The notes beneath the pieces are model-generated. The model searched no databases. It had not been told where the DNA came from and saw only the letters and a list, made by a program, of their open reading frames with translations. The translations under genes were made by a program, and so were the position numbers. A stretch of DNA of 48,526 bases from NCBI GenBank assembly GCA_042584825.1, contig JBHOSK010000003.1, positions 1 to 48,526 of the forward strand. The letters run 5' to 3'. This DNA is from Candidatus Aenigmatarchaeota archaeon (GTDB taxonomy: Archaea > Aenigmatarchaeota > Aenigmatarchaeia > GW2011-AR5). Position 1 is the stretch's first letter. Every line of letters starts with the position of its first letter. Below are positions 32,603-44,111 of the stretch, piece after piece.

Positions 32603-33567
32603 ATGATAGATCCACATGTGCATTGTAGAGATGGTAATCAATCGTATAAAGAAACCATAATGCATGTTTTTTCTGTTGCTGATAAGCAGGGTGTGAAAAA
32701 AATATTTGATATGCCAAATACAGATCCACCTATTACAACAAAAGCAGATGTTATTAAACGCCTTGGTCTGGTTCCTATCAATAGAAAAAATGATTATTTT
32801 TTGTATATTGGAGCTACGTCGGATGAAAAACAACTAGAAGACGCTGTCAAATGTCATGATGAGTACAACGAGATAATTGGTATAAAATTATTTGCGGGTA
32901 GGTCTGTTGGTAATTTGACTGTTACAGAAAAAGAAGACCAATTTAATATTTACAAAACGCTTTCTGAAATTGGATATAAGGGTGTGTTGGCTGTTCATTG
33001 TGAAAAAGAAGAATTTATCAATGATACAAAATGGGATCCAATAAATCCTTCTACTCATTGTGTTGCTAGACCAAAATTAGCTGAAATAGAATCAATAAAA
33101 GATCAGATTGAATTGGTAAAAAGAACTGGCTTTTCTGGTAACCTACATGTTTGTCATGTATCGTGTCCGGAAACAATAGAAATAATAGATAAAGCAAGAG
33201 AGGAAATGAAAATAACCTGTGGCGTTACTCCACACCACATTTTGTGGAATAATAACTTACTTGAGGGGTAGATGGGTTACTTTACAAGATGAATCCACCA
33301 CTTAGAGATGAAACTGATAAGGAAAAACTAAAGTTGCTGCTTAAGATTGGTAAAATAGACTGGATAGAAAGTGATCATGCGCCGCATGCCATAGGTGAAA
33401 AATTACACTATCCTTTTCTTTCCGGATATCCATCACTCTATCTTTACAAAAATTTTGTGAAAAATTTCTTACCTGGTCTTGGTATTGGTGAAAAGGAAAT
33501 TGAGAAAATGACATTTACTAATATTAAAAATACTTTTAAGAAAAAATTGGGATCTGGCCTAGAATAA
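32603..33567 (+). pseudogene. pyrC: Dihydroorotase split by a single-base frameshift (or assembly error)
   Basis: DPHVH, DMPNT.PP, VHCE, HVCHVS and TPHH in frame 1; KMNPPLR, SDHAPH and SGYP in another frame. One extra G at 33265-33268 would restore LEGVDGLLYKMNPPLR. Confidence 0.85.
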
Positions 33568-33650: not shown

Positions 33651-33860
33651 ATGGGTAAAGCTAGAGTGTATGCAAGAGCAAGACAAAAGGAAACTACAAC
33701 TAAGGCTAAAAAGGGTGTTTCAAAAAAAGGAAAAAAAGAGTTTGAAGAGAAACCAGATTCTTTACCAATAAACACCGAATTTTCTGTTTGTAAAAACTGT
33801 GGTTTTAGAGCAGCCTATAAATTTCATAGGTGTCCTTCTTGTGATGCGGTACAAGAATAG
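33651..33860 (+). CDS. Small basic zinc-ribbon protein
   Basis: CKNCG...RCPSC, with SD AGGTGA upstream. Confidence 0.75.
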   Translation: MGKARVYARARQKETTTKAKKGVSKKGKKEFEEKPDSLPINTEFSVCKNCGFRAAYKFHRCPSCDAVQE

Positions 33861-33870
33861 TTAATTACAC

Positions 33871-33903
33871 TTTTTCTACAGAACTTACTTCTGCAACAAC
33901 CCC
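33871..33903. repeat. Orphan copy of a related transposon right end outside the left target duplication
   Basis: ACTTCTGCAACAACCCC (33887-33903) versus the true right end ACTTCTGCAACAAAGCC (42295-42311). Both are followed by TCGTCCCAC. Confidence 0.7.
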
Positions 33904-33912
33904 TCGTCCCAC
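33904..33912. repeat. Left 9-bp target-site duplication TCGTCCCAC
   Basis: Identical to 42312-42320 and directly abuts the inverted terminus. Confidence 0.9.
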
Positions 33913-34013
33913 GGCTTTGTTGCTAAAAGGGGTTAATTAGACAACATTTGCAACAGAATCGGGACTTTTGCAACAAAACGACATTTAAATAATTTTCAAA
34001 AATACTCTTTCTT

Positions 34014-34412
34014 ATGGATGTTCTTAGTAAAGAACAACGAAGCTATAATATGTCCAGAATCCGAGGAAAGTGGACTGTACCAGAAAAGGCAATTCATAAC
34101 CACCTGAAAGGCTTGAAAATAAAACATAAAATGCATCCAAAAATAGAAGGAAATCCTGATATATTACTGAAGAACTCAAAAACCCTGATTTTTATTGACG
34201 GGTGTTTCTGGCATAAATGTCCAAAATGTTATAAAGAACCGCAGTCCAGAAGGAACTTCTGGATACCGAAAATTGAAGGTAATGTAAAAAAGGGCAGAAC
34301 CGTCACGAGAAAGTTGCGCAGAGAAGGATGGAACGTTATTCGTATATGGGAACATGAAATAAATAATAATCCAAGAAAAATAGTGGGGAATTTAATATGC
34401 CGAATAAAATAA
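34014..34412 (+). CDS. vsr: Very-short-patch repair endonuclease
   Basis: MDV....RSYNMSRIR...T.PE, G.PDI, FIDGCFWH.C, FW..KI..N, GW.VIRIWE. Confidence 0.95.
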   Translation: MDVLSKEQRSYNMSRIRGKWTVPEKAIHNHLKGLKIKHKMHPKIEGNPDILLKNSKTLIFIDGCFWHKCPKCYKEPQSRRNFWIPKIEGNVKKGRTVTRKLRREGWNVIRIWEHEINNNPRKIVGNLICRIK

Positions 34413-34897
34413 AACAAATTGTAGATGGTTTAAAAAATGATGAATTATGGGATATGTATTCAAGCATAATGCAGCAGTTAAAACAGAGGGGGCTTGTAAG
34501 AACAAAAAATATAATTGGTGAAAGAGGAGAGTCGCTTGTGGTAGAAATTTATAACAATACACCAAATGAGCCAAACCTTCAAGCAGCACCAGAAGGGACC
34601 CAAAACGTAGACGCTCTTAGCCGAAAAGGTGAAAGATACAGCATAAAAACTGTTACCCTTCCGAATAAAATAACTGGCGTCTTCTATGGCCTGAATCAAC
34701 CCGAATCAAGTGAAGTTGAAGAAAAAAAGTTTGAATATCTTATAATTGTCCTACTCGACAGTAATTTACAACCTATTAAAATTTTAGAAGCTGGATGGGA
34801 AACATTTCTTAAATTTAAAAAATGGCACAAGACGATGCGCGCTTGGAACATTTCCATAACAAAAAAATTTGAAGGTGAATGTCGTATAATTATATGA
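34397..34897 (+). CDS. Small PD-(D/E)XK restriction-endonuclease-fold protein
   Basis: GERGE...VDA...YSIK arrangement, position in an R-M-like cassette, overlapping neighbours. Confidence 0.65.
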   Translation: MPNKIKQIVDGLKNDELWDMYSSIMQQLKQRGLVRTKNIIGERGESLVVEIYNNTPNEPNLQAAPEGTQNVDALSRKGERYSIKTVTLPNKITGVFYGLNQPESSEVEEKKFEYLIIVLLDSNLQPIKILEAGWETFLKFKKWHKTMRAWNISITKKFEGECRIII

Positions 34898-36507
34898 AGG
34901 TAATAAAAATGATTAGTGATATAAAATACGAATCATTTATTGAAATAGATGATATGCCTATTCAGTGGGCATCTAGAATAGAATTATTCTATCCCGACCT
35001 ACCGCAATTTCCAATAATTTATGTTCACAAAGTAGTCGGTAGGGAGAGAATATATGGATTTCCTGTATCTTTCAGCATAACCTGTAAAAAAAATAAAACA
35101 TGCAGTGTTAAACTGAAATTTTTGTCTAATAAAAATCTGGAAAAAAATAAAAATTTAAAAAATACAATAAAAGAAGAATTAGAACACAGAATCGGTACAA
35201 AAAACAAGATAGGGCTTGATGATATAATAGCCGCATGCAAAGGTGAAAAAAAATACGAAAAATTTTTTGCCTATTTGTGGAAATACGTTTCAAAAATTTA
35301 TGGCAATGTAATACCATATGGAAAATTATATGAAGAAATATTTTCTATCGTTAGATTTGTATCGGCTTGGCAGCCAAAAACAGGAAGACAAAGTGAAATG
35401 AGAATGCTCTACAATTTTCTCAGTATTTTTGGGGAGAAAATAGTCGTGAAGGGTGACTGGGATTATCTCGAATTTTTCCTTTTGCCTACATATTCCGACA
35501 TGCTTGGAAAAAATTTTAAACCTTTCCCTACATTTAACAAACTTTTTGTTGCAATGGAAAAGATATGGAAATCCCAGTTCACGCAGTCTGTAACCATAGG
35601 CGACAAATCCATGTCTTTTATGAAAAAGGGCTGGCCAAGTAATAAAGAAGAATTCATAAACACTGTATGCTCCGAGCTAATAAATGCAGGAAAAATTACC
35701 AAAGAAGACGGACACAATATAGAAAGGTTGATTGATGCATTCAACAGACATCCTTGGAGAGCGTCGTTTTTTATTTCCAGCATAATGAATGCATATGTTT
35801 TTGATTATAACATCTGGGACAAAAAGTTTTTCATCAAATTTTATTCAAATAAAAAAGGCAGGGGTGTCTCACCCAAAGCCATAGCATGTTTTCTTCAGCA
35901 GGGATTCCTTAAAGATGAGTTCATACCAATAGATACATGGGTAGAATCGTTTCATGTATATGCGCTTGGTATAGCAACTAAAGACGAGTTTTTCAAAAAA
36001 TTCAGCAAAATGGGTAAACTTGAAAGGGTCATATGGCTTTCAAGCCAGGCAAACAAAACCAACATTACCACGTTTTTTAATACATTATGGTGTACGCGTT
36101 TTGGTGTCAGGGGAATCAAAAAATTAAGGGAAGCTAATCCTATTTCATGTTACGAATGTGAACTTAAAGATACGTGTCCTGGATATCTTGAAATAAAGGA
36201 TAAGCTGGTTCTTGTCAAAGAAAGTGACCACGTCAGATTAAGAGAAGAAACCACACCAAAAGGTAAATTTAAAGGTCAGGTTTTGGATTCGCCAGAAGTT
36301 ATTGAGGAAGCCTCTTCAGGTGACTGTGAATTTGTATGTATAACCAAGAATTCCGTTCCGAAAAAAATAATAATAAACAGTAACGGCAAGTGGCCGCTTA
36401 TAGACGAACATTCTGGATACGTTCTTGACAGTACCAAGAAAACGAATAAGATAAACGAAATTGTCACGGTTGATGATTTTATAAAAAGTCTCCCTAAATT
36501 CAATTAA
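34879..36507 (+). CDS. Large protein with HhH-GPD DNA glycosylase motifs and a probable Fe-S cluster loop
   Basis: GVSPKAIACF...F....IPIDTWV (HhH Lys and catalytic Asp pattern), then WC...CYECELKDTC. Confidence 0.7.
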   Translation: MSYNYMKVIKMISDIKYESFIEIDDMPIQWASRIELFYPDLPQFPIIYVHKVVGRERIYGFPVSFSITCKKNKTCSVKLKFLSNKNLEKNKNLKNTIKEELEHRIGTKNKIGLDDIIAACKGEKKYEKFFAYLWKYVSKIYGNVIPYGKLYEEIFSIVRFVSAWQPKTGRQSEMRMLYNFLSIFGEKIVVKGDWDYLEFFLLPTYSDMLGKNFKPFPTFNKLFVAMEKIWKSQFTQSVTIGDKSMSFMKKGWPSNKEEFINTVCSELINAGKITKEDGHNIERLIDAFNRHPWRASFFISSIMNAYVFDYNIWDKKFFIKFYSNKKGRGVSPKAIACFLQQGFLKDEFIPIDTWVESFHVYALGIATKDEFFKKFSKMGKLERVIWLSSQANKTNITTFFNTLWCTRFGVRGIKKLREANPISCYECELKDTCPGYLEIKDKLVLVKESDHVRLREETTPKGKFKGQVLDSPEVIEEASSGDCEFVCITKNSVPKKIIINSNGKWPLIDEHSGYVLDSTKKTNKINEIVTVDDFIKSLPKFN

Positions 36508-37666
36508 ATGCCTTTTTTATCTCTTCGGCAATTGCTTTTGCAAGAAGTGGTGGAACCGCATTTCCTATCTGGCTGTAGATGTCTCTCTTACTTCCAGTAA
36601 ATTTGAAACCTTTTGGAAAACTCTGTATTGCCGCACACTCATCTGGTGTAAGCATACGTATTTCATTTTCCGAATATTTTACAAGTGCATCGGCACCATC
36701 CTTCCAGTAACGGGCCGAAATTGTAAATGAAGGTTCATCCATTCTCAGAATCTGCCATCCAAAACCGTTTTTCAGTTTCCTGTTTATCTTTTCCCTCTTT
36801 CTGAATCCAGCCAGCATTTTTGGTGAGTGGAAAAATGCCTTGTCTACACGTTCCTTTTCTTTAAGAACCTTTCCCACACCAACCCATTTTTTTAGAATAC
36901 TGTTACCAACTGTCTTACTGGATATTTTGGAATGTGTGGGCCTTGGAAAAGTCTGAACGTCTTTTTTTGTACCGATAAAAATAACCCTCTGTCTTTTCTG
37001 CGGAACGCCGTAATCAGCCGCCATGAGCGTCCTGAATTTTATTTCATACCCTATCTTTCTGAACTCTTTTTCTATCATTTTTATTACAGGTTCCTGAAAG
37101 TTTCTTAACCCCATTCTAAGTTTCGAAAGTTCCTTGGAGATATATGTCCTTCTTCTTATTATCTGATCATCAGTAAGTTCGGTATTCTTGAGAAGTCCAA
37201 GTCTTTCCGATGTAAGAGAATCAATTTTTTTTAGAATATTATCACTTATTTTTTTCTCTTTTTCGGAAAGATCGTCCCTGAAATGATACATTGCCAGAAT
37301 CCCTTTAACATTTTCAATGACAAAAAACTTGGGCCCGATATGTTTCACAATCTCAACATAGTCATAAAAGAGTTTTCCGCGGGGATCATTTGGATCCCTT
37401 CTGCCCGCCAAAGAAAAGGCCTGACACGGCGGCCCGCCGATAATTACATCAACTTTCCTGTCAACTGTTTTTATTATTTCCTTACGGACTTTTTCATTTC
37501 TGATGTCACCGCGTATGGCTTTTGCATCTGGGTGATTGATTTCAAAAGTATTTAATGCGGGATCCCAGTTGTCATTCCCAGCAAGAATCCTGAATCCTGC
37601 CATCTCAAATCCCTTACTCATTCCACCACAACCGCAGAAAAGATCTAGGACAGTCGGTTTTTTCAT
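36500..37666 (-). CDS. dcm: DNA (cytosine-5)-methyltransferase
   Basis: Motif I DLFCGCGG, IV GGPPCQ, VI ENV, VIII Q.RQR, IX/X R.LT...IQSFP and QIGNAVPP. Confidence 0.97.
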   Translation of the reverse strand: MKKPTVLDLFCGCGGMSKGFEMAGFRILAGNDNWDPALNTFEINHPDAKAIRGDIRNEKVRKEIIKTVDRKVDVIIGGPPCQAFSLAGRRDPNDPRGKLFYDYVEIVKHIGPKFFVIENVKGILAMYHFRDDLSEKEKKISDNILKKIDSLTSERLGLLKNTELTDDQIIRRRTYISKELSKLRMGLRNFQEPVIKMIEKEFRKIGYEIKFRTLMAADYGVPQKRQRVIFIGTKKDVQTFPRPTHSKISSKTVGNSILKKWVGVGKVLKEKERVDKAFFHSPKMLAGFRKREKINRKLKNGFGWQILRMDEPSFTISARYWKDGADALVKYSENEIRMLTPDECAAIQSFPKGFKFTGSKRDIYSQIGNAVPPLLAKAIAEEIKKAFN

Positions 37667-38358
37667 TGGTCACACCTCTTCTTTTTTCCAGCCCACTCAC
37701 AAAACTTACACGTCTCAGAAGATTCGGGCATCTCTCCCCGTAAAACCTGTATAGCTTTCTTAAACAACTCCTCAGCATGTTCCAGGTTTATATCCATCTT
37801 GACAAGATGTGTATCAAAAACAAAGTCACCATTATCATTAATCTCTTTTGAGATTAGGAATAACAGATATGCATAATCTTCTGTTTCGTATCCATTCTTT
37901 CTTAACAGAAAATTGTATAGATTTACCTGGTCTTGATAATGATGGTGTGTATCTTCTTTCAGGGGATATCCTCTTGTTTTGTAATCAAGAACAATAAGCT
38001 TTTTGTCTTTTACGAGCATATCATCAACAGCACCTCGTAATAAAATATCACTTTCTTCATCCAGGAACTGAATACCCTTGAAGTTGTTCCTCCAGATATT
38101 AAGTTGTTCTATATCATCAAACAGTTTGATTCCATCTAGTTCTTCCAGTTCTGGAGGTATTGTTTTTTGTTTTCTGTGCTTGTCGAAATGAACTTTCATT
38201 ATCTTGTCAATACCAGAGGGCAATGTTGGAAATCCCATACTAGGTCTACGTATCTTTTTTACAACATATAACCAGAAACATTTAGGACAGTTCTCCAATA
38301 AATTCAAACTTGATGGTGATAGTTTATATTTTGTCATTATTATCCCTCTTTGATTCAA
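37663..38358 (-). CDS. PD-(D/E)XK (RecB/Cas4-like) nuclease
   Basis: LSPSSL....CPKCFW, GAVDD, LDYKT, Q...Y, CKFC. Likely start ATG 38337. Confidence 0.88.
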   Translation of the reverse strand: MNQRGIIMTKYKLSPSSLNLLENCPKCFWLYVVKKIRRPSMGFPTLPSGIDKIMKVHFDKHRKQKTIPPELEELDGIKLFDDIEQLNIWRNNFKGIQFLDEESDILLRGAVDDMLVKDKKLIVLDYKTRGYPLKEDTHHHYQDQVNLYNFLLRKNGYETEDYAYLLFLISKEINDNGDFVFDTHLVKMDINLEHAEELFKKAIQVLRGEMPESSETCKFCEWAGKKKRCDQ

Positions 38359-39580
38359 AATTTAAATTCTTGTCAAACTCGGTCTTTATACCCAATTCCT
38401 CCATTTCTTGCACTACTACACAAATATTATGGCAGAGTATTTTCAGTAAAATTTCATTCTGAATTGCCGTCTCTGTTCTGCTTCGTACGTGTGAGCCAAA
38501 TTTAGATTTAATCATGTGGAATGTTGTTTCAACGTTGCTCCGTTTATGATAGTGTTCTCTAAATTCTTCCTGATTATACATGAATTGATGCCACATCTTT
38601 TTCCACAAACGAGATTTATACGCTCTTGGTGCACTGTTGCTTTTGAATGGAATATATGCGGTACCACCCAACCCCTGTACGAGCGTGAGACTGTTTTTTG
38701 ATAAGTACGCTTTGTCGGCACTAACTTCATCAATCTTGAAATTTTCAGATGTTTTTTCTACAAGACCTGAAAATTGTTTTATGTCGCTTTCGTGTCCTGT
38801 TGTTAATTTTACTGCAGCAACAATATTTGTCTTAACACCAACACACAAATGAGCCTTAATCCATACACGTTTTGCTTGGTCCTTGCCAAACCTGTAATCA
38901 AACCAGCGACCGAAGTTAGATGTGGAAAATCCAGAAGAATCAACTGCGAAGTCGGTTTCCACATTTTTTAATACAAGACTGCTTAGTTCTATGAGTTCAA
39001 TTAATATTGGTGTCAGTTCTAACTTTTCCATGTAACGTGCCACTGTTGTGTAATAAGGTATTTTATTTATGAAGTCGTCTTCTTTTGCTTTCTTTACATC
39101 GCTTGTAAATCTTCTAAGTGAAAAAGTAGTATACACTTTCAAAGCAGAAGCAAATATCATGTCCTTTAACAACATCTTTGGTCTTCCAAAGATTTGCTGC
39201 GGTTCTTCCACGGTTTTGCATAGGTCATGCAACAGCTTCATGAACAATGATTTCTCGTTAATTTTTGCTCTATCATAGGCTGGCCATTTTTGCGGATATG
39301 TCGGTTTTATTATTCTCGTGGTTATTGTGCTTCCTATTTCATCAGAAGTTTTATTTGTAATGAGTTCTACAGCCCAAATATGTTTACATTTTTCTAGTCT
39401 TTCTTGATAGTCATGACAAGAGCACGTTAATTTTCCGTCAAGTGCTCTCCTTCTTACATCATAGTAAATGTGCTTTGTTTGTGACGGGACTCGCCAGCCA
39501 GTGGATACTTTTTTGATACGGCTTCGCTGGGCTATCAAAAGGCCTCTTTGTTTTCTACTGTTGGTATTTTCTATTTGCAT
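38324..39580 (-). CDS. DDE transposase (IS5/IS4-like) with N-terminal SWIM zinc finger
   Basis: SWIM CSC.D......CKH, catalytic AVDSSG, ADKAY and YHKRSNVETTF, W.KAH. Confidence 0.93.
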   Translation of the reverse strand: MQIENTNSRKQRGLLIAQRSRIKKVSTGWRVPSQTKHIYYDVRRRALDGKLTCSCHDYQERLEKCKHIWAVELITNKTSDEIGSTITTRIIKPTYPQKWPAYDRAKINEKSLFMKLLHDLCKTVEEPQQIFGRPKMLLKDMIFASALKVYTTFSLRRFTSDVKKAKEDDFINKIPYYTTVARYMEKLELTPILIELIELSSLVLKNVETDFAVDSSGFSTSNFGRWFDYRFGKDQAKRVWIKAHLCVGVKTNIVAAVKLTTGHESDIKQFSGLVEKTSENFKIDEVSADKAYLSKNSLTLVQGLGGTAYIPFKSNSAPRAYKSRLWKKMWHQFMYNQEEFREHYHKRSNVETTFHMIKSKFGSHVRSRTETAIQNEILLKILCHNICVVVQEMEELGIKTEFDKNLNFESKRDNNDKI

Positions 39581-39597
39581 TTTATCACCGTGTGGTA

Positions 39598-39666
39598 ATA
39601 CACATATGTGTATATGTGTATAAACTTAATTCACTGAAGGATTTAAAGCTATGGGTTTATGTGTAT
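39598..39666. promoter_or_regulatory. Perfect 16-bp palindrome and ATGTGTAT repeats between divergent transposase and RHH genes
   Basis: ATACACATATGTGTAT at 39598-39613. ATGTGTAT recurs at about 39614 and 39659. Confidence 0.6.
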
Positions 39667-39668
39667 AT

Positions 39669-39875
39669 ATGGGAAGGTTGGATATAGTTATCAGCGATGA
39701 TATAGAAAAAAAATTTAGAGATGAGATAGTTAAAAGATTGGGATTTAAAAAAGGTAACATAAGTATTGCCATTGAAGATGCGATAAAAGATTGGTTAAAT
39801 AAAAAATCTGGAAAAATGGTACTTGCAGGTAAGAAAGCGTGGATAACGAGAAGGGAGAAAGCGATTAAAAAATAA
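39669..39875 (+). CDS. Ribbon-helix-helix (CopG-like) regulator
   Basis: MGRLDIVISDDIEKKFR......G..KG.IS.AIEDAI..WL. Confidence 0.8.
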   Translation: MGRLDIVISDDIEKKFRDEIVKRLGFKKGNISIAIEDAIKDWLNKKSGKMVLAGKKAWITRREKAIKK

Positions 39876-39894
39876 AAATATTGAGTAATTTTAT

Positions 39895-40518
39895 ATGGTT
39901 GAAATTTCAAAAAGAATTATAGACGTGATAAAAGATTTATTTGTTATAAGAAATGATTGTTTTCCTATACAGAAAGATGGGTTGAATGAATATAAAGTAA
40001 TGAAAGGTTTTTTTTCTGATGAAATTATAAAAAGCCACCTTAAGGGTACACTAACTGTTGGTAGCTTCCAAATAAATCCTAATACTAACACTGTGAAATG
40101 GATATGTTTTGATTTTGATGGAGATTTAGATACTGAATTTAAAAAAACCAAGAAACTTTACATACACCTCAAAGAAAATGGTTACAATCCTTTATTAGAA
40201 TTTAGTGGAAGACGGGGGTATCATGTTTGGTTATTTATAAAACCTACTGACGCAGCGATTGCAAGAAAATTTTCACATGAAGTTTCTAAGAGTATTATCA
40301 TTAGCGAAATATTTCCAAAACAAAATAAAATTGGAGTTAATCAATATGGTGGTCAGGTTAAGATACCTCTTGGCATACATAGAGCGAGTAACAAACGAAG
40401 CTTTTTTTTTGACAATAATTTTAAAGAATTATCCTTGAAAAAAAGTTTTAATGAGTTACTCTCAATTAATCGTAAACGGGATGTGCTAGATATTTTCAAT
40501 TTGAAAAGGTTCGAGTAA
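39895..40518 (+). CDS. Stand-alone archaeo-eukaryotic primase catalytic domain (AEP, TOTE-like)
   Basis: WICFDFD, EFSGRRGYHVW, FPKQ, VKIPLG.H. Confidence 0.85.
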   Translation: MVEISKRIIDVIKDLFVIRNDCFPIQKDGLNEYKVMKGFFSDEIIKSHLKGTLTVGSFQINPNTNTVKWICFDFDGDLDTEFKKTKKLYIHLKENGYNPLLEFSGRRGYHVWLFIKPTDAAIARKFSHEVSKSIIISEIFPKQNKIGVNQYGGQVKIPLGIHRASNKRSFFFDNNFKELSLKKSFNELLSINRKRDVLDIFNLKRFE

Positions 40519-40549
40519 ATTATTAATCTTTTGGTATACAATTTAATTT

Positions 40550-41275
40550 ATGGCTGAAAAGAGTTCTATTGAATGGACAGATTCTACGTGGAATCCAACA
40601 ACGGGGTGTACTAAGGTTAGCTCAGGTTGTGCTAATTGTTATGCTGAAAGATTAGCTTTTAGACTTCATAAGATAGGTGTAAAAAAATATAGAAATCGAT
40701 TCAGATTAACTATTCACAAGGATGTTATATCAATGCCTTTGAAATGGAAGGTACCTAAAACGATATTTGTTAACAGTATGAGTGATTTATTTCATAAAGA
40801 CGTTTCGTATGATTTCATTAAACGTGTTTTTGATGTTATGAAAGAGGCGCACTGGCATACTTTCCAGTTGTTAACAAAAAGACCTGAAAGAATGTTAGAA
40901 TTCACAAAAAAATATTATAAAAAGCCTATATCCAATTTGTGGCTTGGAACATCTATAGAAAATTCTTCTGTGAAAAACAGAATAAATATTTTAAAGAAAA
41001 CACCATCTAAAATAAGGTTTATCAGTTTTGAACCTCTGATTGGTCCTATCGGAAAATTAAACTTGAGTAAAATACATTGGGTTGTTGTTGGTGGTGAAAG
41101 TGGTTGGAATCATAGACCAATAGAAAAAGATTGGGTAAGAGAAATAAGAGACCAATGTATTAAACAAAAGGTACCTTTTTTCTTTAAACAGTGGGGGGGT
41201 AATACACCAAAATCTGGTGGTAGAAAGTTAGATAGAAAATATTGGAATGAATATCCCGCTACCGAAAAAAACTAA
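40550..41275 (+). CDS. DUF5131 (phage Gp37/Gp68-like) three-Cys-motif protein
   Basis: IEWTD.TWNP.TGC.KVS.GC.NCYA, FVNSMSDLFH, LTKRP, SFEPL, GGESG, FFKQWGG. Confidence 0.95.
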   Translation: MAEKSSIEWTDSTWNPTTGCTKVSSGCANCYAERLAFRLHKIGVKKYRNRFRLTIHKDVISMPLKWKVPKTIFVNSMSDLFHKDVSYDFIKRVFDVMKEAHWHTFQLLTKRPERMLEFTKKYYKKPISNLWLGTSIENSSVKNRINILKKTPSKIRFISFEPLIGPIGKLNLSKIHWVVVGGESGWNHRPIEKDWVREIRDQCIKQKVPFFFKQWGGNTPKSGGRKLDRKYWNEYPATEKN

Positions 41276-42222
41276 ATCATATCAACCAAGGATTTAGACC
41301 TACCTTCTATTTGGCTTGCAATTTCTTCTAGAACTTTACCTGAAAATTTTTTTATTCTGTAATTCAAACCACCGAATATGTTTGGAAACCAAGGTGATGC
41401 CGCAAATGTTTTTCTCACCGCTGGAATGAGATGATAATGATAAGGTATTCCACCACCAGCACGTATAGCTATCTCGGTAGAAACGTCTTTTCCTATACCT
41501 GCCAAATTTTTTCTATATTGCTTTATAGCCCACGTTTCAACGTGTGACGATGGGACTTTTTCAGAACCAGGACCTAAAAAAGATTTTATTGCGTCTGGAT
41601 AATGTAAATTTCTTGAAATTGCTGTGGATGGAAAATTTATTATAAAGTCGCACATAATATTATCCGCCATTGATGTTACAGAGTCCCATTTCATTTCCAT
41701 ACCTTCTGGGTCTATGAATATTAAAGAATGGTCTATACCGAAAGATTTTAGAATTTCAGGTATTTCGTTAATCAACTTATTAGCATCTTTTTTTTCAATG
41801 GAAAATTTATCTGATTTGAGTAATTTATATGCATCTATCCTGGCTTCAAGTGCATCGACATTTTTCTTTTTATTATCACAAAATATGTGATAATCAAATC
41901 CTGGTTTTTCTCTATCTATAACCAGCGGGATTAGTGGTGAACCTAAAACTGGTATTTTCGCATCTCCCAATATATTAATACCGGGTCCTGAGAAAAGGTC
42001 TATGAATGCTGTCTTTTTCCCCCTTTTTCTGAATATATTTACAAATGGAGGTATGTAATATTTTATACAAATGAGTTTTAATGCAGTCCAATAACCTTTG
42101 TCGTATGTGGGAACTTTAGATTCTATTTCACCATCAAGAGTATTTATTTCCTTTCCTTTATCCATAAGTGGCTTTAGGTGTGATATAATCCATTCTCTAT
42201 CTGTCATTTTTCTAGGACTCAT
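41272..42222 (-). CDS. tcmP: Three-Cys-motif partner protein (SAM-methyltransferase-like fold)
   Basis: WT..KL, FIDLFSGPG, GSPL, DAN, FIDP.G. Convergent with DUF5131. Confidence 0.88.
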   Translation of the reverse strand: MSPRKMTDREWIISHLKPLMDKGKEINTLDGEIESKVPTYDKGYWTALKLICIKYYIPPFVNIFRKRGKKTAFIDLFSGPGINILGDAKIPVLGSPLIPLVIDREKPGFDYHIFCDNKKKNVDALEARIDAYKLLKSDKFSIEKKDANKLINEIPEILKSFGIDHSLIFIDPEGMEMKWDSVTSMADNIMCDFIINFPSTAISRNLHYPDAIKSFLGPGSEKVPSSHVETWAIKQYRKNLAGIGKDVSTEIAIRAGGGIPYHYHLIPAVRKTFAASPWFPNIFGGLNYRIKKFSGKVLEEIASQIEGRSKSLVDMI

Positions 42223-42311
42223 GGAATATATTGGAATTTAAATTTTTTAATATGTTGTTTTTACAACAAAAAACACTCTTTTGCAACAGGAATCACTTCT
42301 GCAACAAAGCC

Positions 42312-42320
42312 TCGTCCCAC
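42312..42320. repeat. Right 9-bp target-site duplication TCGTCCCAC
   Basis: Identical to 33904-33912. Confidence 0.9.
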
Positions 42321-42395
42321 AAAAACTTTAAATACCGGTTTAATGTATGATGTGTTGTCTAGAGGTGTCGAAAATGAATAAAATAAAAACAAACG

Positions 42396-42674
42396 TTGGT
42401 GGCCGGGTTCACATCAGTGAACAAAACAAATAGACTTATTTCTGCTCAATTTACAGCGAAGCTGGATGAAAAAGGACGTATAGTAATACCTTCTGATGTT
42501 AGGCGATCCTTTGGTTTGGGAAAAGGTAGATGTTTAGATGTTGCTCTTTCTTGTAGTTTTGATGGTCGTGATAGTGTAATGGTAGCATATGGGCTTGTGG
42601 AGCCTCTGGTTCGGGTTCAAATCCCGGTCACGACCCTATCAAAAATTAATGGAACTGGTGAGAAATATGGATAA
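42396..42674 (+). pseudogene. AbrB/MazE/SpoVT-like DNA-binding domain, probably disrupted, reading into tRNA-His
   Basis: AKLDEKGRIVIPSDVRRSFGL. The ATG with a good SD (42374) is in another frame that stops early, and the AbrB frame runs through the tRNA. Confidence 0.55.
42564..42635 (+). tRNA. tRNA-His (GTG) with encoded G-1
   Basis: Acceptor GTCGTGA/TCACGAC, G-1:C73, anticodon loop TTGTGGA, T-loop TTCAAAT, no encoded CCA. Confidence 0.92.
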
Positions 42675-42864: not shown

Positions 42865-42896
42865 ACATTAATAAATTGTAAGAGGAAGTGATTATT

Positions 42897-44111
42897 ATGA
42901 AATTTCAAGTTCCGCGCGGTACAAGGGATTTTTTGCCTGAAGAAATGGCAAAAAGAAGAATAGTATTTGATAGGATAAGAAGTATCTTTGATAGATATGG
43001 GTATGGAGAAGTATGTACTCCTGCTTTTGAAGATTTTGAACTTCTTTCAAAAAAATCTGGACCAGATATAGAGAATGAGCTTTATGTATTCAAAGATAAG
43101 TCTGGTAGAAAATTAGGATTGCGTTTTGATCCTACTGTACCAATATGTAGAATTGTTTCTAATGATCCAAGCATGATAAATCCGATAAAATTTAGTTATA
43201 TTACTAACATGTGGAGGTACGATAGACCTGGTGCTGGTAGATGGCGAGAGTTCTGGCAAGCAGGAGTTGAACTAATAGGTTCATCTAAACCAGAAGCTGA
43301 TGTAGAAATAATACAAGTTGTTTATGATATACTTACATCTCTTGGAATAAAGGACTTTTATTTCAAAATAAATTCACGGGTTGTTATAGAAGATTTTATC
43401 AAAGAGTCTGGTATCAGTGAAAAAAAGAAATTTGATGTATTCAGAGCAATAGACAAACTTGGCAAAATAGGTGAGAAAGGTGTTAGAAAGGAAATGGAAA
43501 GATATGAGATAGACAAGAAAAAAATAGATAAATTTATTTCTCTTGTAAGAGAAAAAGGAAATACAAAAGAACTTCTTGATATAATTGGTCTTTGTAAGTT
43601 AACCGGGATTGAAAATATAGAAATTGATTTTAGCATTGTGCGTGGTATTGATTATTATACTGGTTTTGTTTTTGAAACGTTTGTAAAAGGTAAGGAAAGT
43701 GTTGGATCCGTAGCCTCTGGTGGTAGATATGATTCACTAATTGGATTGTATAGTGGAAAAGAAACACCAGCAACCGGGTTTGGTTTAGGTATTGATAGGT
43801 TGTTGGATGCTGTTAAAATAAAAGTAGACGACAATAAAAAATCTGTTTTTATTGCTTACATTAAAGAAAAACAAGCGGCAATGGAATTAGCTGGCGAGTT
43901 AAGAAAACTTGGCATTAATGTGGAAACAGATGTGATGGATAGAAACTTGAAAAAGCAGCTTAATTATGCAAATAACAAAAAAATATCATATGTTATTGTT
44001 TTGGGTGAAAAGGAAATATCATCTAAAAAAGGTAAATTAAAGGATATGGCAACTGGAAAAGAATATTCTATAGACTTAGAAAACCTAGAAAAAATAAAAG
44101 AATTGATATAA
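42897..44111 (+). CDS. hisS: Histidine--tRNA ligase
   Basis: PRGTRDF, LRFD.T, R.DRP..GR.REF.Q, RGIDYYTG, GGRYD, GFGLGIDR, anticodon-binding domain. Confidence 0.98.
   Translation: MKFQVPRGTRDFLPEEMAKRRIVFDRIRSIFDRYGYGEVCTPAFEDFELLSKKSGPDIENELYVFKDKSGRKLGLRFDPTVPICRIVSNDPSMINPIKFSYITNMWRYDRPGAGRWREFWQAGVELIGSSKPEADVEIIQVVYDILTSLGIKDFYFKINSRVVIEDFIKESGISEKKKFDVFRAIDKLGKIGEKGVRKEMERYEIDKKKIDKFISLVREKGNTKELLDIIGLCKLTGIENIEIDFSIVRGIDYYTGFVFETFVKGKESVGSVASGGRYDSLIGLYSGKETPATGFGLGIDRLLDAVKIKVDDNKKSVFIAYIKEKQAAMELAGELRKLGINVETDVMDRNLKKQLNYANNKKISYVIVLGEKEISSKKGKLKDMATGKEYSIDLENLEKIKELI

Follow-up and report, generated by a model that had tools for sequence, protein, structure and literature searches.

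Boundaries and organization of the element

The window analysed in this work, a stretch of 48,526 nucleotides from a Candidatus Aenigmatarchaeota archaeon (contig JBHOSK010000003.1, assembly GCA_042584825.1), contains at positions 33913-42311 a segment of 8,399 bp that carries one transposase gene and nine passenger genes, and that is very probably a genuine non-composite unit transposon moved by its single IS5/IS903-like transposase. Direct reading of the sequence shows the segment to be bounded by perfectly matching inverted ends of 11 bp, GGCTTTGTTGC, and by an equally perfect target duplication of 9 bp, TCGTCCCAC, of which the window holds exactly two copies (33904-33912 and 42312-42320, without strand assignment). 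The left terminal inverted repeat occupies 33913-33923 on the plus strand, and the junction reads ...CAACAACCCC TCGTCCCAC / GGCTTTGTTGC, the longer form of the left flank being ...CTTCTGCAACAACCCC. On the other side, the right terminal inverted repeat lies on the minus strand at 42301-42311, where its plus-strand form is GCAACAAAGCC; direct reading and a repeat scan agree on a junction of GCAACAAAGCC / TCGTCCCAC AAAAACTTTAAATA, with ...CTGCAACAAAGCC as the longer form of the right end.

A scan for inverted repeats flanking the transposase, themselves flanked by direct repeats, ranked the 33913/42311 pair far above all others. The sequence GGCTTTGT was found at just two places in the 48.5-kb window, both of them element ends. 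In 200 windows simulated with a Markov model, a 9-bp direct repeat combined with an 11/11 inverted repeat around the transposase never arose. These results uphold the limits that an initial annotation, made by a model from the letters alone, had proposed for the element. The same annotation had named closer inverted repeats bounding only the transposase as the finding that would speak against it; no plausible inner pair was found, the candidates being AT-rich pairs of 12-23 nt within coding sequence, none of them GGCTTTG-like. Distances of 4.4 kb and 2.7 kb separate the transposase gene from the left and the right end, respectively; it is the only one of its kind inside the element, as had been described, and no second copy occurs in the assembly (887 kb in 41 contigs, 65.7% completeness). 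With one transposase, terminal inverted repeats, a target duplication, internal passengers and no flanking insertion sequence (IS) copies, the segment has the make-up of a tIS or unit transposon in the ISfinder/TnCentral sense.

The repeats could instead be a coincidental or relic pair, the transposase being an ordinary IS remnant that lies in a fixed island of defence genes, and the 8.4 kb having never moved as a unit. Such a history would fit the single copy, the lack of observed mobility and a GC content like that of the surrounding genome; it is contradicted by the simulations, by the lack of inner inverted repeats around the transposase, by the same architecture at 37 of 79 independent loci and by relatives without the segment at the orthologous site (both described below). 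It is already largely refuted and we consider it very improbable.

Each end of the unit transposon holds, besides the terminal repeat, two further TTGCAACA-type motifs, which on the right follow the direction of the terminal copy and on the left are inverted. They comprise two TTTGCAACA(G/A) repeats at 33947-33976 (plus strand) and, from a direct repeat scan, TTTACAACAA and TTTGCAACAG at 42260-42300 (plus strand). The motif TTGTTGCA occurs 8 times in the window vs 3.2 expected, and the three-site layout of the ends recurs in relatives with a motif of their own, for instance TGTTTAA at loci L034, L041 and L032. The subterminal repeats may be additional transposase-binding sites.

The transposase and its relation to IS903

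The transposase gene (38324-39580, minus strand) encodes a protein of 418 aa with an N-terminal SWIM zinc finger (PF04434, E 1.1e-4) and a DDE_Tnp_1 domain (PF01609, E 5.2e-24). The CxC...CxH residues of the finger are C53, C55, C65 and H67, the catalytic residues are D214, D289 and E351, and the Y-2-R-3-E-6-K motif that accompanies the DDE triad in the IS5 family is formed by Y344, R347, E351 and K358; all of them are invariant across 58 aligned homologs. The reading frame and the catalytic residues are intact. The NCBIfam model of the IS5 family, NF033579, matches residues 98-386 only, with 142.4 bits vs a cut-off of 140, and about 98 additional N-terminal residues, which include the SWIM finger, precede the IS5/IS903-type catalytic domain. 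The proposal of a SWIM-bearing IS5-like enzyme is borne out by these matches. A profile search of the PDB with the 58 transposases gave nothing better than E 0.5, that is, no relative of solved structure by sequence.

In a comparison with 72,556 plasmids, the stretch from residue 99 to residue 368 aligns at 23-25% identity and E 1e-5 to 1e-12 with transposases of IS903B and of the ISAba13 type (about 23% and E of about 1e-5 for IS903B, 24% for the ISAba13 type), and the first 98 residues matched nothing. An annotated copy of IS903B (NZ_CP080071.1) begins GGCTTTGTTGAATAAATC and ends with its complement; therefore, the first ten bases of the window element's ends are those of IS903. The termini of both elements start with GGCTTTGTTG, as is typical of the IS903 group, and both transposases have a DDE_Tnp_1 catalytic domain with the YREK motif. 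IS903 generates target duplications of 9 bp, the length found at the window element. The comparison with IS903 made by the initial annotation was confirmed by sequence for the ends and for the transposase-only IS903B of about 1 kb, the 9-bp value for IS903 being general background. The differences are as follows: IS903B measures about 1.06 kb and holds only a transposase, whereas the window element measures 8.4 kb and holds nine passengers; the IS903 group consists of compact units of about 1 kb with nothing other than a transposase of about 310 aa, and only one of the 37 bounded relatives of the window element (see below) is shorter than 3.5 kb; the window transposase bears the SWIM-containing extension of about 98 residues; and the window element has three site-like repeats per end, where IS903 has one inverted repeat. 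By sequence, then, the ends and the catalytic domain are IS903-like, and the size, the cargo and the SWIM extension are not.

A family of bounded elements in archaea and bacteria

With 8,000 candidates scored, the protein family numbers no fewer than 7,221 clusters at E <= 1e-20, and its named members carry only the labels 'transposase' or 'IS5 family transposase'. A cross-species comparison, limited to one genome per species, confirmed relatives in 475 of 599 scanned stretches; 79 loci with 10-kb flanks were kept. The exact end motif of the window is not kept letter for letter in relatives, and a general repeat-plus-duplication scan was therefore needed. An exact 9-bp duplication together with inverted ends matching at 12 or more of 16 positions surrounds the transposase at 37 of the 79 loci, vs 4 of 79 in a control with reversed, not complemented sequence; of the 56 loci that extend for 3 kb or more to each side, 32 qualify. 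The left end begins [AG]GCTTTG in 36 of these 37 bounded elements, which span 3,529-7,855 bp with a single exception of 1,802 bp. Of the loci lacking the pair, some are at contig ends and others may have decayed or may exceed the 10-kb flanks.

The hosts of the bounded elements are 14 archaea (DPANN groups, Methanoperedens and other Euryarchaeota) and 23 bacteria (Dehalococcoidia, Chloroflexia, Acidobacteriota, Acetothermia, alpha- and delta-proteobacteria). A transposase match is present in 13 of the 70 genomes of the window's order, and 11 loci from the window's own archaeal family, some members of which are named Aenigmatarchaeota in the records, were examined. Four of these have perfect inverted ends of the GGCTTTG or AGCTTTG type and an exact 9-bp duplication (L032, 5,754 bp, in whose end pair the first base mismatches; L034, 3,686 bp; L036, 6,217 bp; L041, 4,065 bp), two have ends with no matching duplication, and five have neither, two of them at contig ends.

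Clustering of the reading frames of 40 elements left the transposase as the only common component (36 of 40), with 135 singleton clusters and no conserved accessory gene. The commonest Pfam families in the cargo, counted over 126 open reading frames (ORFs) of 100 aa or more in 39 elements, were N6_Mtase (6), DNA_methylase (5), N6_N4_Mtase (4), Vsr, Methylase_S, Eco57I and MmeI (3 each), D12 and Mrr (2 each), counts that may overlap within one protein, and there were also single restriction enzymes, PIN domains and others. The PADLOC list for this cargo is likewise headed by methyltransferase families. The search around homologs suggested by the initial annotation thus returned comparable ends with variable cargo. 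Its claim of a distinct archaeal class of defence-cargo transposons holds as regards the ends and a cargo rich in restriction-modification (R-M) genes, and fails as regards the domain, because 23 of the 37 bounded elements are in bacteria. Taken at sequence level, the family is a large branch of IS5/IS903 relatives, widespread in archaea and bacteria and apparently undescribed, whose members appear to share GGCTTTG ends, a 9-bp duplication and variable, R-M-rich cargo.

Two further observations concern members of this family. In a Chloroflexia element (L119, 7721-15104), the right end is of the GGGGTTG type and not of the GGCTTTG type, and a second GCAACCCC is located just outside the left duplication, an arrangement that mirrors that of the window. 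In the window itself, a lysine-rich zinc-ribbon ORF of 69 aa (33651-33860), situated immediately beyond the left duplication, is homologous (E 9e-15 and 1e-10) to ORFs within the two transposon copies of genome G041 (L032 7762-7965 and L033 7541-7726), about 1.4-1.6 kb upstream of their transposases.

A recurrent insertion site upstream of hisS

To the right of the window element lie, in this order, a small ORF, the tRNA-His gene (42565-42636) and hisS, encoding histidyl-tRNA synthetase (42888-44111). This right flank is conserved in seven other genomes and starts directly after the duplication with AAAAAC TTTAAATA (42321-42334, plus strand), within which a TATA-like box begins 6 bp after the right duplication copy. 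Archaeal promoters have a characteristic TATA consensus, and on this basis AAAAAC TTTAAATA is a putative promoter element of the host. A search of Rfam around both junctions returned tRNA-His only.

Two other genomes have an insertion at this position. In G023 (locus L036), a sister element of 6.2 kb occupies the homologous position, ...GAACACAACCCC TTTGCCCAC [6,217 bp] TTTGCCCAC AAAACGCTTAAGTA. In G012, which belongs to another genus, a mini-element of 68 bp with ends of the window type and a CACTCCCAC duplication sits at exactly the same position (L146 3612-3679), and this genome (91% complete) has no transposase match at E <= 1e-10. The relatives are 65-72% identical in genes, too distant for an empty-site search by DNA similarity, and empty sites were therefore located through hisS synteny and the motif CAACCCC-N4-CCCAC-AAAA, searched over 44 genomes of the family. 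The uninterrupted site was found once each in six of the 44, always upstream of hisS, and a control pattern was found in none. Two of the genomes, G009 and G058, belong to the genus of G023 and carry a single TTTGCCCAC where G023 holds the duplicated 9-mer and the element; over 1.27 kb, the right flanks of G009 and G023 are 97-99% identical. The initial annotation had called for an empty site with a single 9-mer in related genomes or reads: such sites exist at the orthologous position in six relatives, including the genus of the sister element, and for the window's own site they lie at genus-level distance only. No public sequencing runs holding the left flank are listed.

The three occupancies of the hisS site are best read as independent insertions into one preferred site, since each genome has its own identical pair of 9-mers and the end types and cargo differ. 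The insertion in the window is not random, because it lies in a recurrently used landing pad, just upstream of the putative promoter of the small ORF, tRNA-His and hisS. A different history would be that of a once genuine transposon, now immobile or domesticated, kept at a fixed site for its defence cargo and vertically inherited, in which case the occupied site in three genera would go back to one ancient insertion. The transposases of the window and of G023 are about 51% identical, close to the figure of about 50% for the flanking HisRS proteins, and both elements share orientation, as this history would predict. It does not account for duplication copies that are identical within a genome and differ between genomes (TCGTCCCAC, TTTGCCCAC and CACTCCCAC), a pattern that independent decay would not give; nor for the differing end types (TTGTTGC vs TTGTGTA) and cargo, for the empty site in the congener of G023 with the 97-99% identical right flank, or for the intact reading frame and catalytic residues of the transposase. 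We regard this history as unlikely.

Some further features were noted around hisS. Between the TATA-like box and the tRNA-His and hisS genes, several genera have a short ORF of about 19-21 codons (42374-42433 in the window; also at L133, L137, L146, L036 and L157). Its versions each contain one His in a similar context (for example ..GRVHIS.., ..SPHRGF.., ..YFHRGF..), and its product may act as a leader peptide or as a small protein linked to the His operon. In G023, a second end/9 bp/end junction, ..AAACAAAGCC TGGGTCTTG GGCTTTGCACG.., was found at L036 3679-3722, 5.6 kb to the left of the element at the hisS site, so modules that are stacked or have decayed may be present in this genome too; to the right of hisS there is another broken copy of the transposase.

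The end-like left flank

The direct repeat around the window element exceeds 9 bp, since 33867-33912 matches 42275-42320 at 83% over 46 nt. The initial annotation had recognised the exact 9-bp repeat and missed this extension. Given this match, the left flank has the appearance of a right-end copy that has degenerated. The part outside the duplication (33867-33903, plus strand) resembles the inside of the right end, with 14 of 16 positions matching there, 29 of 37 matching over the whole flank and two transposase-site-like motifs covered by the alignment; it terminates in CAACCCC, the terminal AGCC of the end being replaced by CCCC. The last 12-14 nt of this flank are the host block conserved at the empty sites of six genomes. 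Directly left of the 9-mer the block reads ACACAACCCC, and its reverse complement, GGGGTTGTGT, resembles a transposon end, although the resemblance in the window is much stronger than that of the conserved host block. Among 80 flanks of 40 elements, 7 match the opposite inside end at 10 or more of 16 positions vs about 1.2 expected, and 5 match at 12 or more vs about 0.06 expected.

A repeat pair of this length also raises the prospect of site-specific recombination, with the 46-nt imperfect repeats at 33867-33912 and 42275-42320 as attL and attR and the 9 bp as crossover core. Besides a direct repeat that extends well past 9 bp, the use of one chromosomal site across three genera and a tRNA gene 245 bp to the right would be in keeping with an integrative element. 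Yet no integrase or recombinase was found by Pfam and NCBIfam among the 10 ORFs of the element, relatives of the transposase are at unrelated sites with different 9-bp duplications, 34 of the 40 elements have flank matches below 10 of 16, the empty sites conserve a block of about 12-14 nt and not 46 nt, and the tRNA gene itself is not the target. Integration by a recombinase is for these reasons highly improbable.

The left flank in the window may have one of three origins: a relic of the end of an earlier resident, gene conversion from the right end, or a host decoy that diverged toward the end. Neither a third copy of the 9-mer nor a left-end partner for the end-like flank was found to the left of the element in the window, and the flank is consequently not demonstrable as a complete older element.

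Tandem arrays in Acidobacteriota

In Acidobacteriota, elements of the family abut with exactly 9 bp between their ends, and the same 9-mer recurs through the array. At L093, GTTGGACCG precedes, separates and follows the first two modules and also precedes the third, the 9-mer after the third being its reverse complement; the three modules measure 4,035, 5,276 and 7,154 bp, each with its own transposase, intact or broken. The arrays at L088, L109 and L115 are similar and L102 and L111 also show repeated 9-mers; together with L080, L090 and L118, these loci make up the tandem stacks with one repeated 9-mer. Seven of the nine loci (not L102 and L109) start at a conserved (C)TGCGTC TGATAATACATATTAT, one of them with a single mismatch, followed by a variable 9-mer and the first end, and the genes upstream of this motif show homology within two groups. 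No head-to-tail orientation of the arrays is claimed, because the modules differ in the orientation of their transposases. Repeated insertion into the 9 bp beside a recognised motif would produce exactly this pattern.

Proposed mechanism and its weighing

We propose that the transposase would bind the 11-bp terminal inverted repeats, probably together with the two subterminal TTGCAACA-type sites of each end, and would move the whole 8.4-kb segment, joining it to 9-bp staggered cuts that would give rise to the TCGTCCCAC duplication. Target choice might depend on recognition of the end-like host block (ACAACCCC) by the transposase or a partner, which would then cut the 9 bp next to it. IS30 and IS911, which belong to other IS families and have circle intermediates, are known to insert immediately next to sequences that resemble their own inverted repeats. 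In the present case, the host block resembles the end partially (GGGGTTGTGTTC vs GGCTTTGTGTAG), and its binding is putative. From the patterns in the sequence we infer the role of the SWIM finger, the mode of transposition (cut-and-paste or replicative), the choice of target and any present-day activity, while the boundaries, the architecture of the family, the recurrent target with its empty and occupied orthologous sites and the identities of the cargo genes were read from the sequences compared.

Several points weigh against this reading. No transposition was observed, and the element is single-copy in an assembly that is 65.7% complete. The SWIM match is modest (22.1 bits vs a cut-off of 19.6) and its DNA-binding role putative, and membership in the IS5 family passes the NCBIfam cut-off by just 2.4 bits. 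At 42 of the 79 homologous loci, no exact pair of duplication and inverted repeats was found. The empty sites come from other genera, and the empty allele of the window itself was not among them. As for target choice, attraction to an end mimic leaves unexplained the 46-nt flank match with CCCC in place of AGCC, and it fails for the Acidobacterial landing pad: end mimicry cannot be the whole explanation, because the TGATAATACATATTAT motif does not resemble an end.

Comparison with other mobile systems

In the full-text literature, we found no IS5-type transposase with a SWIM finger, no cargo transposons with IS903-like ends and no arrays of the kind described here, nor a tIS group with a SWIM-IS5 transposase, with mainly R-M cargo or in DPANN archaea; ISfinder, TnCentral and supplementary files were outside that search, and a named member may exist there. 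According to passages of a 2019 survey of integrated elements, cargo-carrying DNA transposons were undetected in archaea (PMC6563490), and elements of the Tn7 family have since been reported in this domain, as stated in the abstract of a preprint (bioRxiv 10.1101/2025.07.27.667033). A search by term in the main text of a 2026 survey of archaeal IS found no reference to IS903, SWIM or passengers (PMC13343696).

By analogy only, the elements resemble Tn7-like transposons, which are described as inserting at a fixed distance from a recognised conserved site beside an essential gene, as carrying many defence genes and as accumulating in tandem where they attach (PMC8649781). They differ from these in that Pfam and NCBIfam detect no TnsA/B/C/D-type domains in the ORFs of the window element, which has a single DDE_Tnp_1 enzyme, and in that many members of its family occupy unrelated sites. 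Another parallel is offered by Furuta et al. (2010), who, in the part of their article considered here, described R-M units with inverted repeats, a short target duplication and empty sites in related genomes (PMC2853133). The window element likewise has R-M genes bounded by inverted repeats and a short duplication; the two empty-site cases in that part of the article have 8-bp duplications and repeats of 26 or 65 bp, no internal transposase is mentioned there, and R-M systems linked to mobility genes had been set aside (PMC2853133). The aloposons, also considered, are unrelated, since the portion of their description available has them integrating at tRNA genes and carrying giant genes (PMC8813620).

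A wider hypothesis, which we offer tentatively and hold to be somewhat less probable than its opposite, is that SWIM-bearing IS903-like transposases act as site-directed shuttles of defence genes across both prokaryotic domains, homing to short landing-pad motifs (the end-mimicking ACAACCCC upstream of hisS in Aenigmatarchaeota, TGATAATACATATTAT in Acidobacteria), cutting the adjacent 9 bp and stacking into tandem arrays with the same 9-mer. If it were true, a DDE transposon with a single protein would build defence islands, a Tn7-like strategy with one enzyme, and some small defence islands would be explained as transposon stacks. A one-enzyme family with computable boundaries that carries R-M and other defence genes in DPANN archaea (genomes of about 1 Mb), Dehalococcoidia and Acidobacteriota offers a simple vehicle for the movement of such genes, and its occurrence in two domains raises the question of inter-domain transfer. 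With one protein, short ends and a defined landing pad, it would also be a tractable system for the study of DDE target specificity and of SWIM function in a prokaryotic transposase.

Cargo and neighbouring genes of the window element

The nine passenger ORFs listed by the initial annotation were confirmed, the weak point being its call of a ribbon-helix-helix protein, and the cargo is a small defence set, which by its domain matches comprises a C5 methyltransferase, a restriction endonuclease, Vsr, a Cas4-like nuclease, a primase-polymerase and the DUF5131/TcmP candidate defence pair. From the left end, three genes are on the plus strand: a Vsr-type very-short-patch nicking endonuclease (34014-34412; PF03852, E 3.8e-18; PADLOC Vsr, E 2.4e-18), a restriction endonuclease of the PADLOC type mREase_II (34397-34897; PDLC03205, E 1.7e-59), for which Pfam gave only a weak DUF6998 match, and a protein of 542 aa unassigned to any family (34879-36507), with no match in Pfam, NCBIfam or PADLOC. 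The nearest Atlas clusters of the latter are unnamed, and rows of the HhH-GPD/AGOG-like kind fall below the Atlas bar, serving as leads only. They are followed on the minus strand by a C5 cytosine DNA methyltransferase (36500-37666; PF00145, E 1e-73; PADLOC MTase_II, E 7.3e-87) and a Cas4-like PD-(D/E)XK nuclease (37663-38358; PF12705, E 8e-12; PADLOC Cas4, E 6.8e-11). The nuclease ORF overlaps both its neighbours and therefore probably shares one operon with the transposase and the methyltransferase.

To the right of the transposase, a small ORF on the plus strand (39651-39875) may tentatively be a ribbon-helix-helix regulator (PF16762, E 0.0057, below the cut-off). Next come, on the same strand, a protein with an archaeo-eukaryotic primase-polymerase domain (39895-40518; PF22548 AEP-TOTE, E 1.1e-23; in PADLOC, the N-terminal part of RT_UG10 and PrimPol) and a DUF5131 protein (40550-41275; PF07505, E 4.6e-95) that corresponds to the B component of the PADLOC candidate defence pair PDC-M41 (PDC-M41B, E 1.2e-109). 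The A component, the three-Cys-motif partner TcmP, is encoded on the minus strand (41272-42222; TIGR04474, E 1.1e-29; PDC-M41A, E 9.9e-20).

Outside the element, to its left, the adjacent ORFs 32603-33271 and 33289-33567 are on the same strand and resemble one split gene; Pfam gave no match at E <= 0.01 and, on reading the translation, they seem amidohydrolase- or dihydroorotase-like. Within the cargo, the endonuclease at 34397-34897 matches a PADLOC family labelled methyl-directed, yet it occurs together with the C5 methyltransferase and the Vsr gene; either the label is loose or the pairing is unusual.

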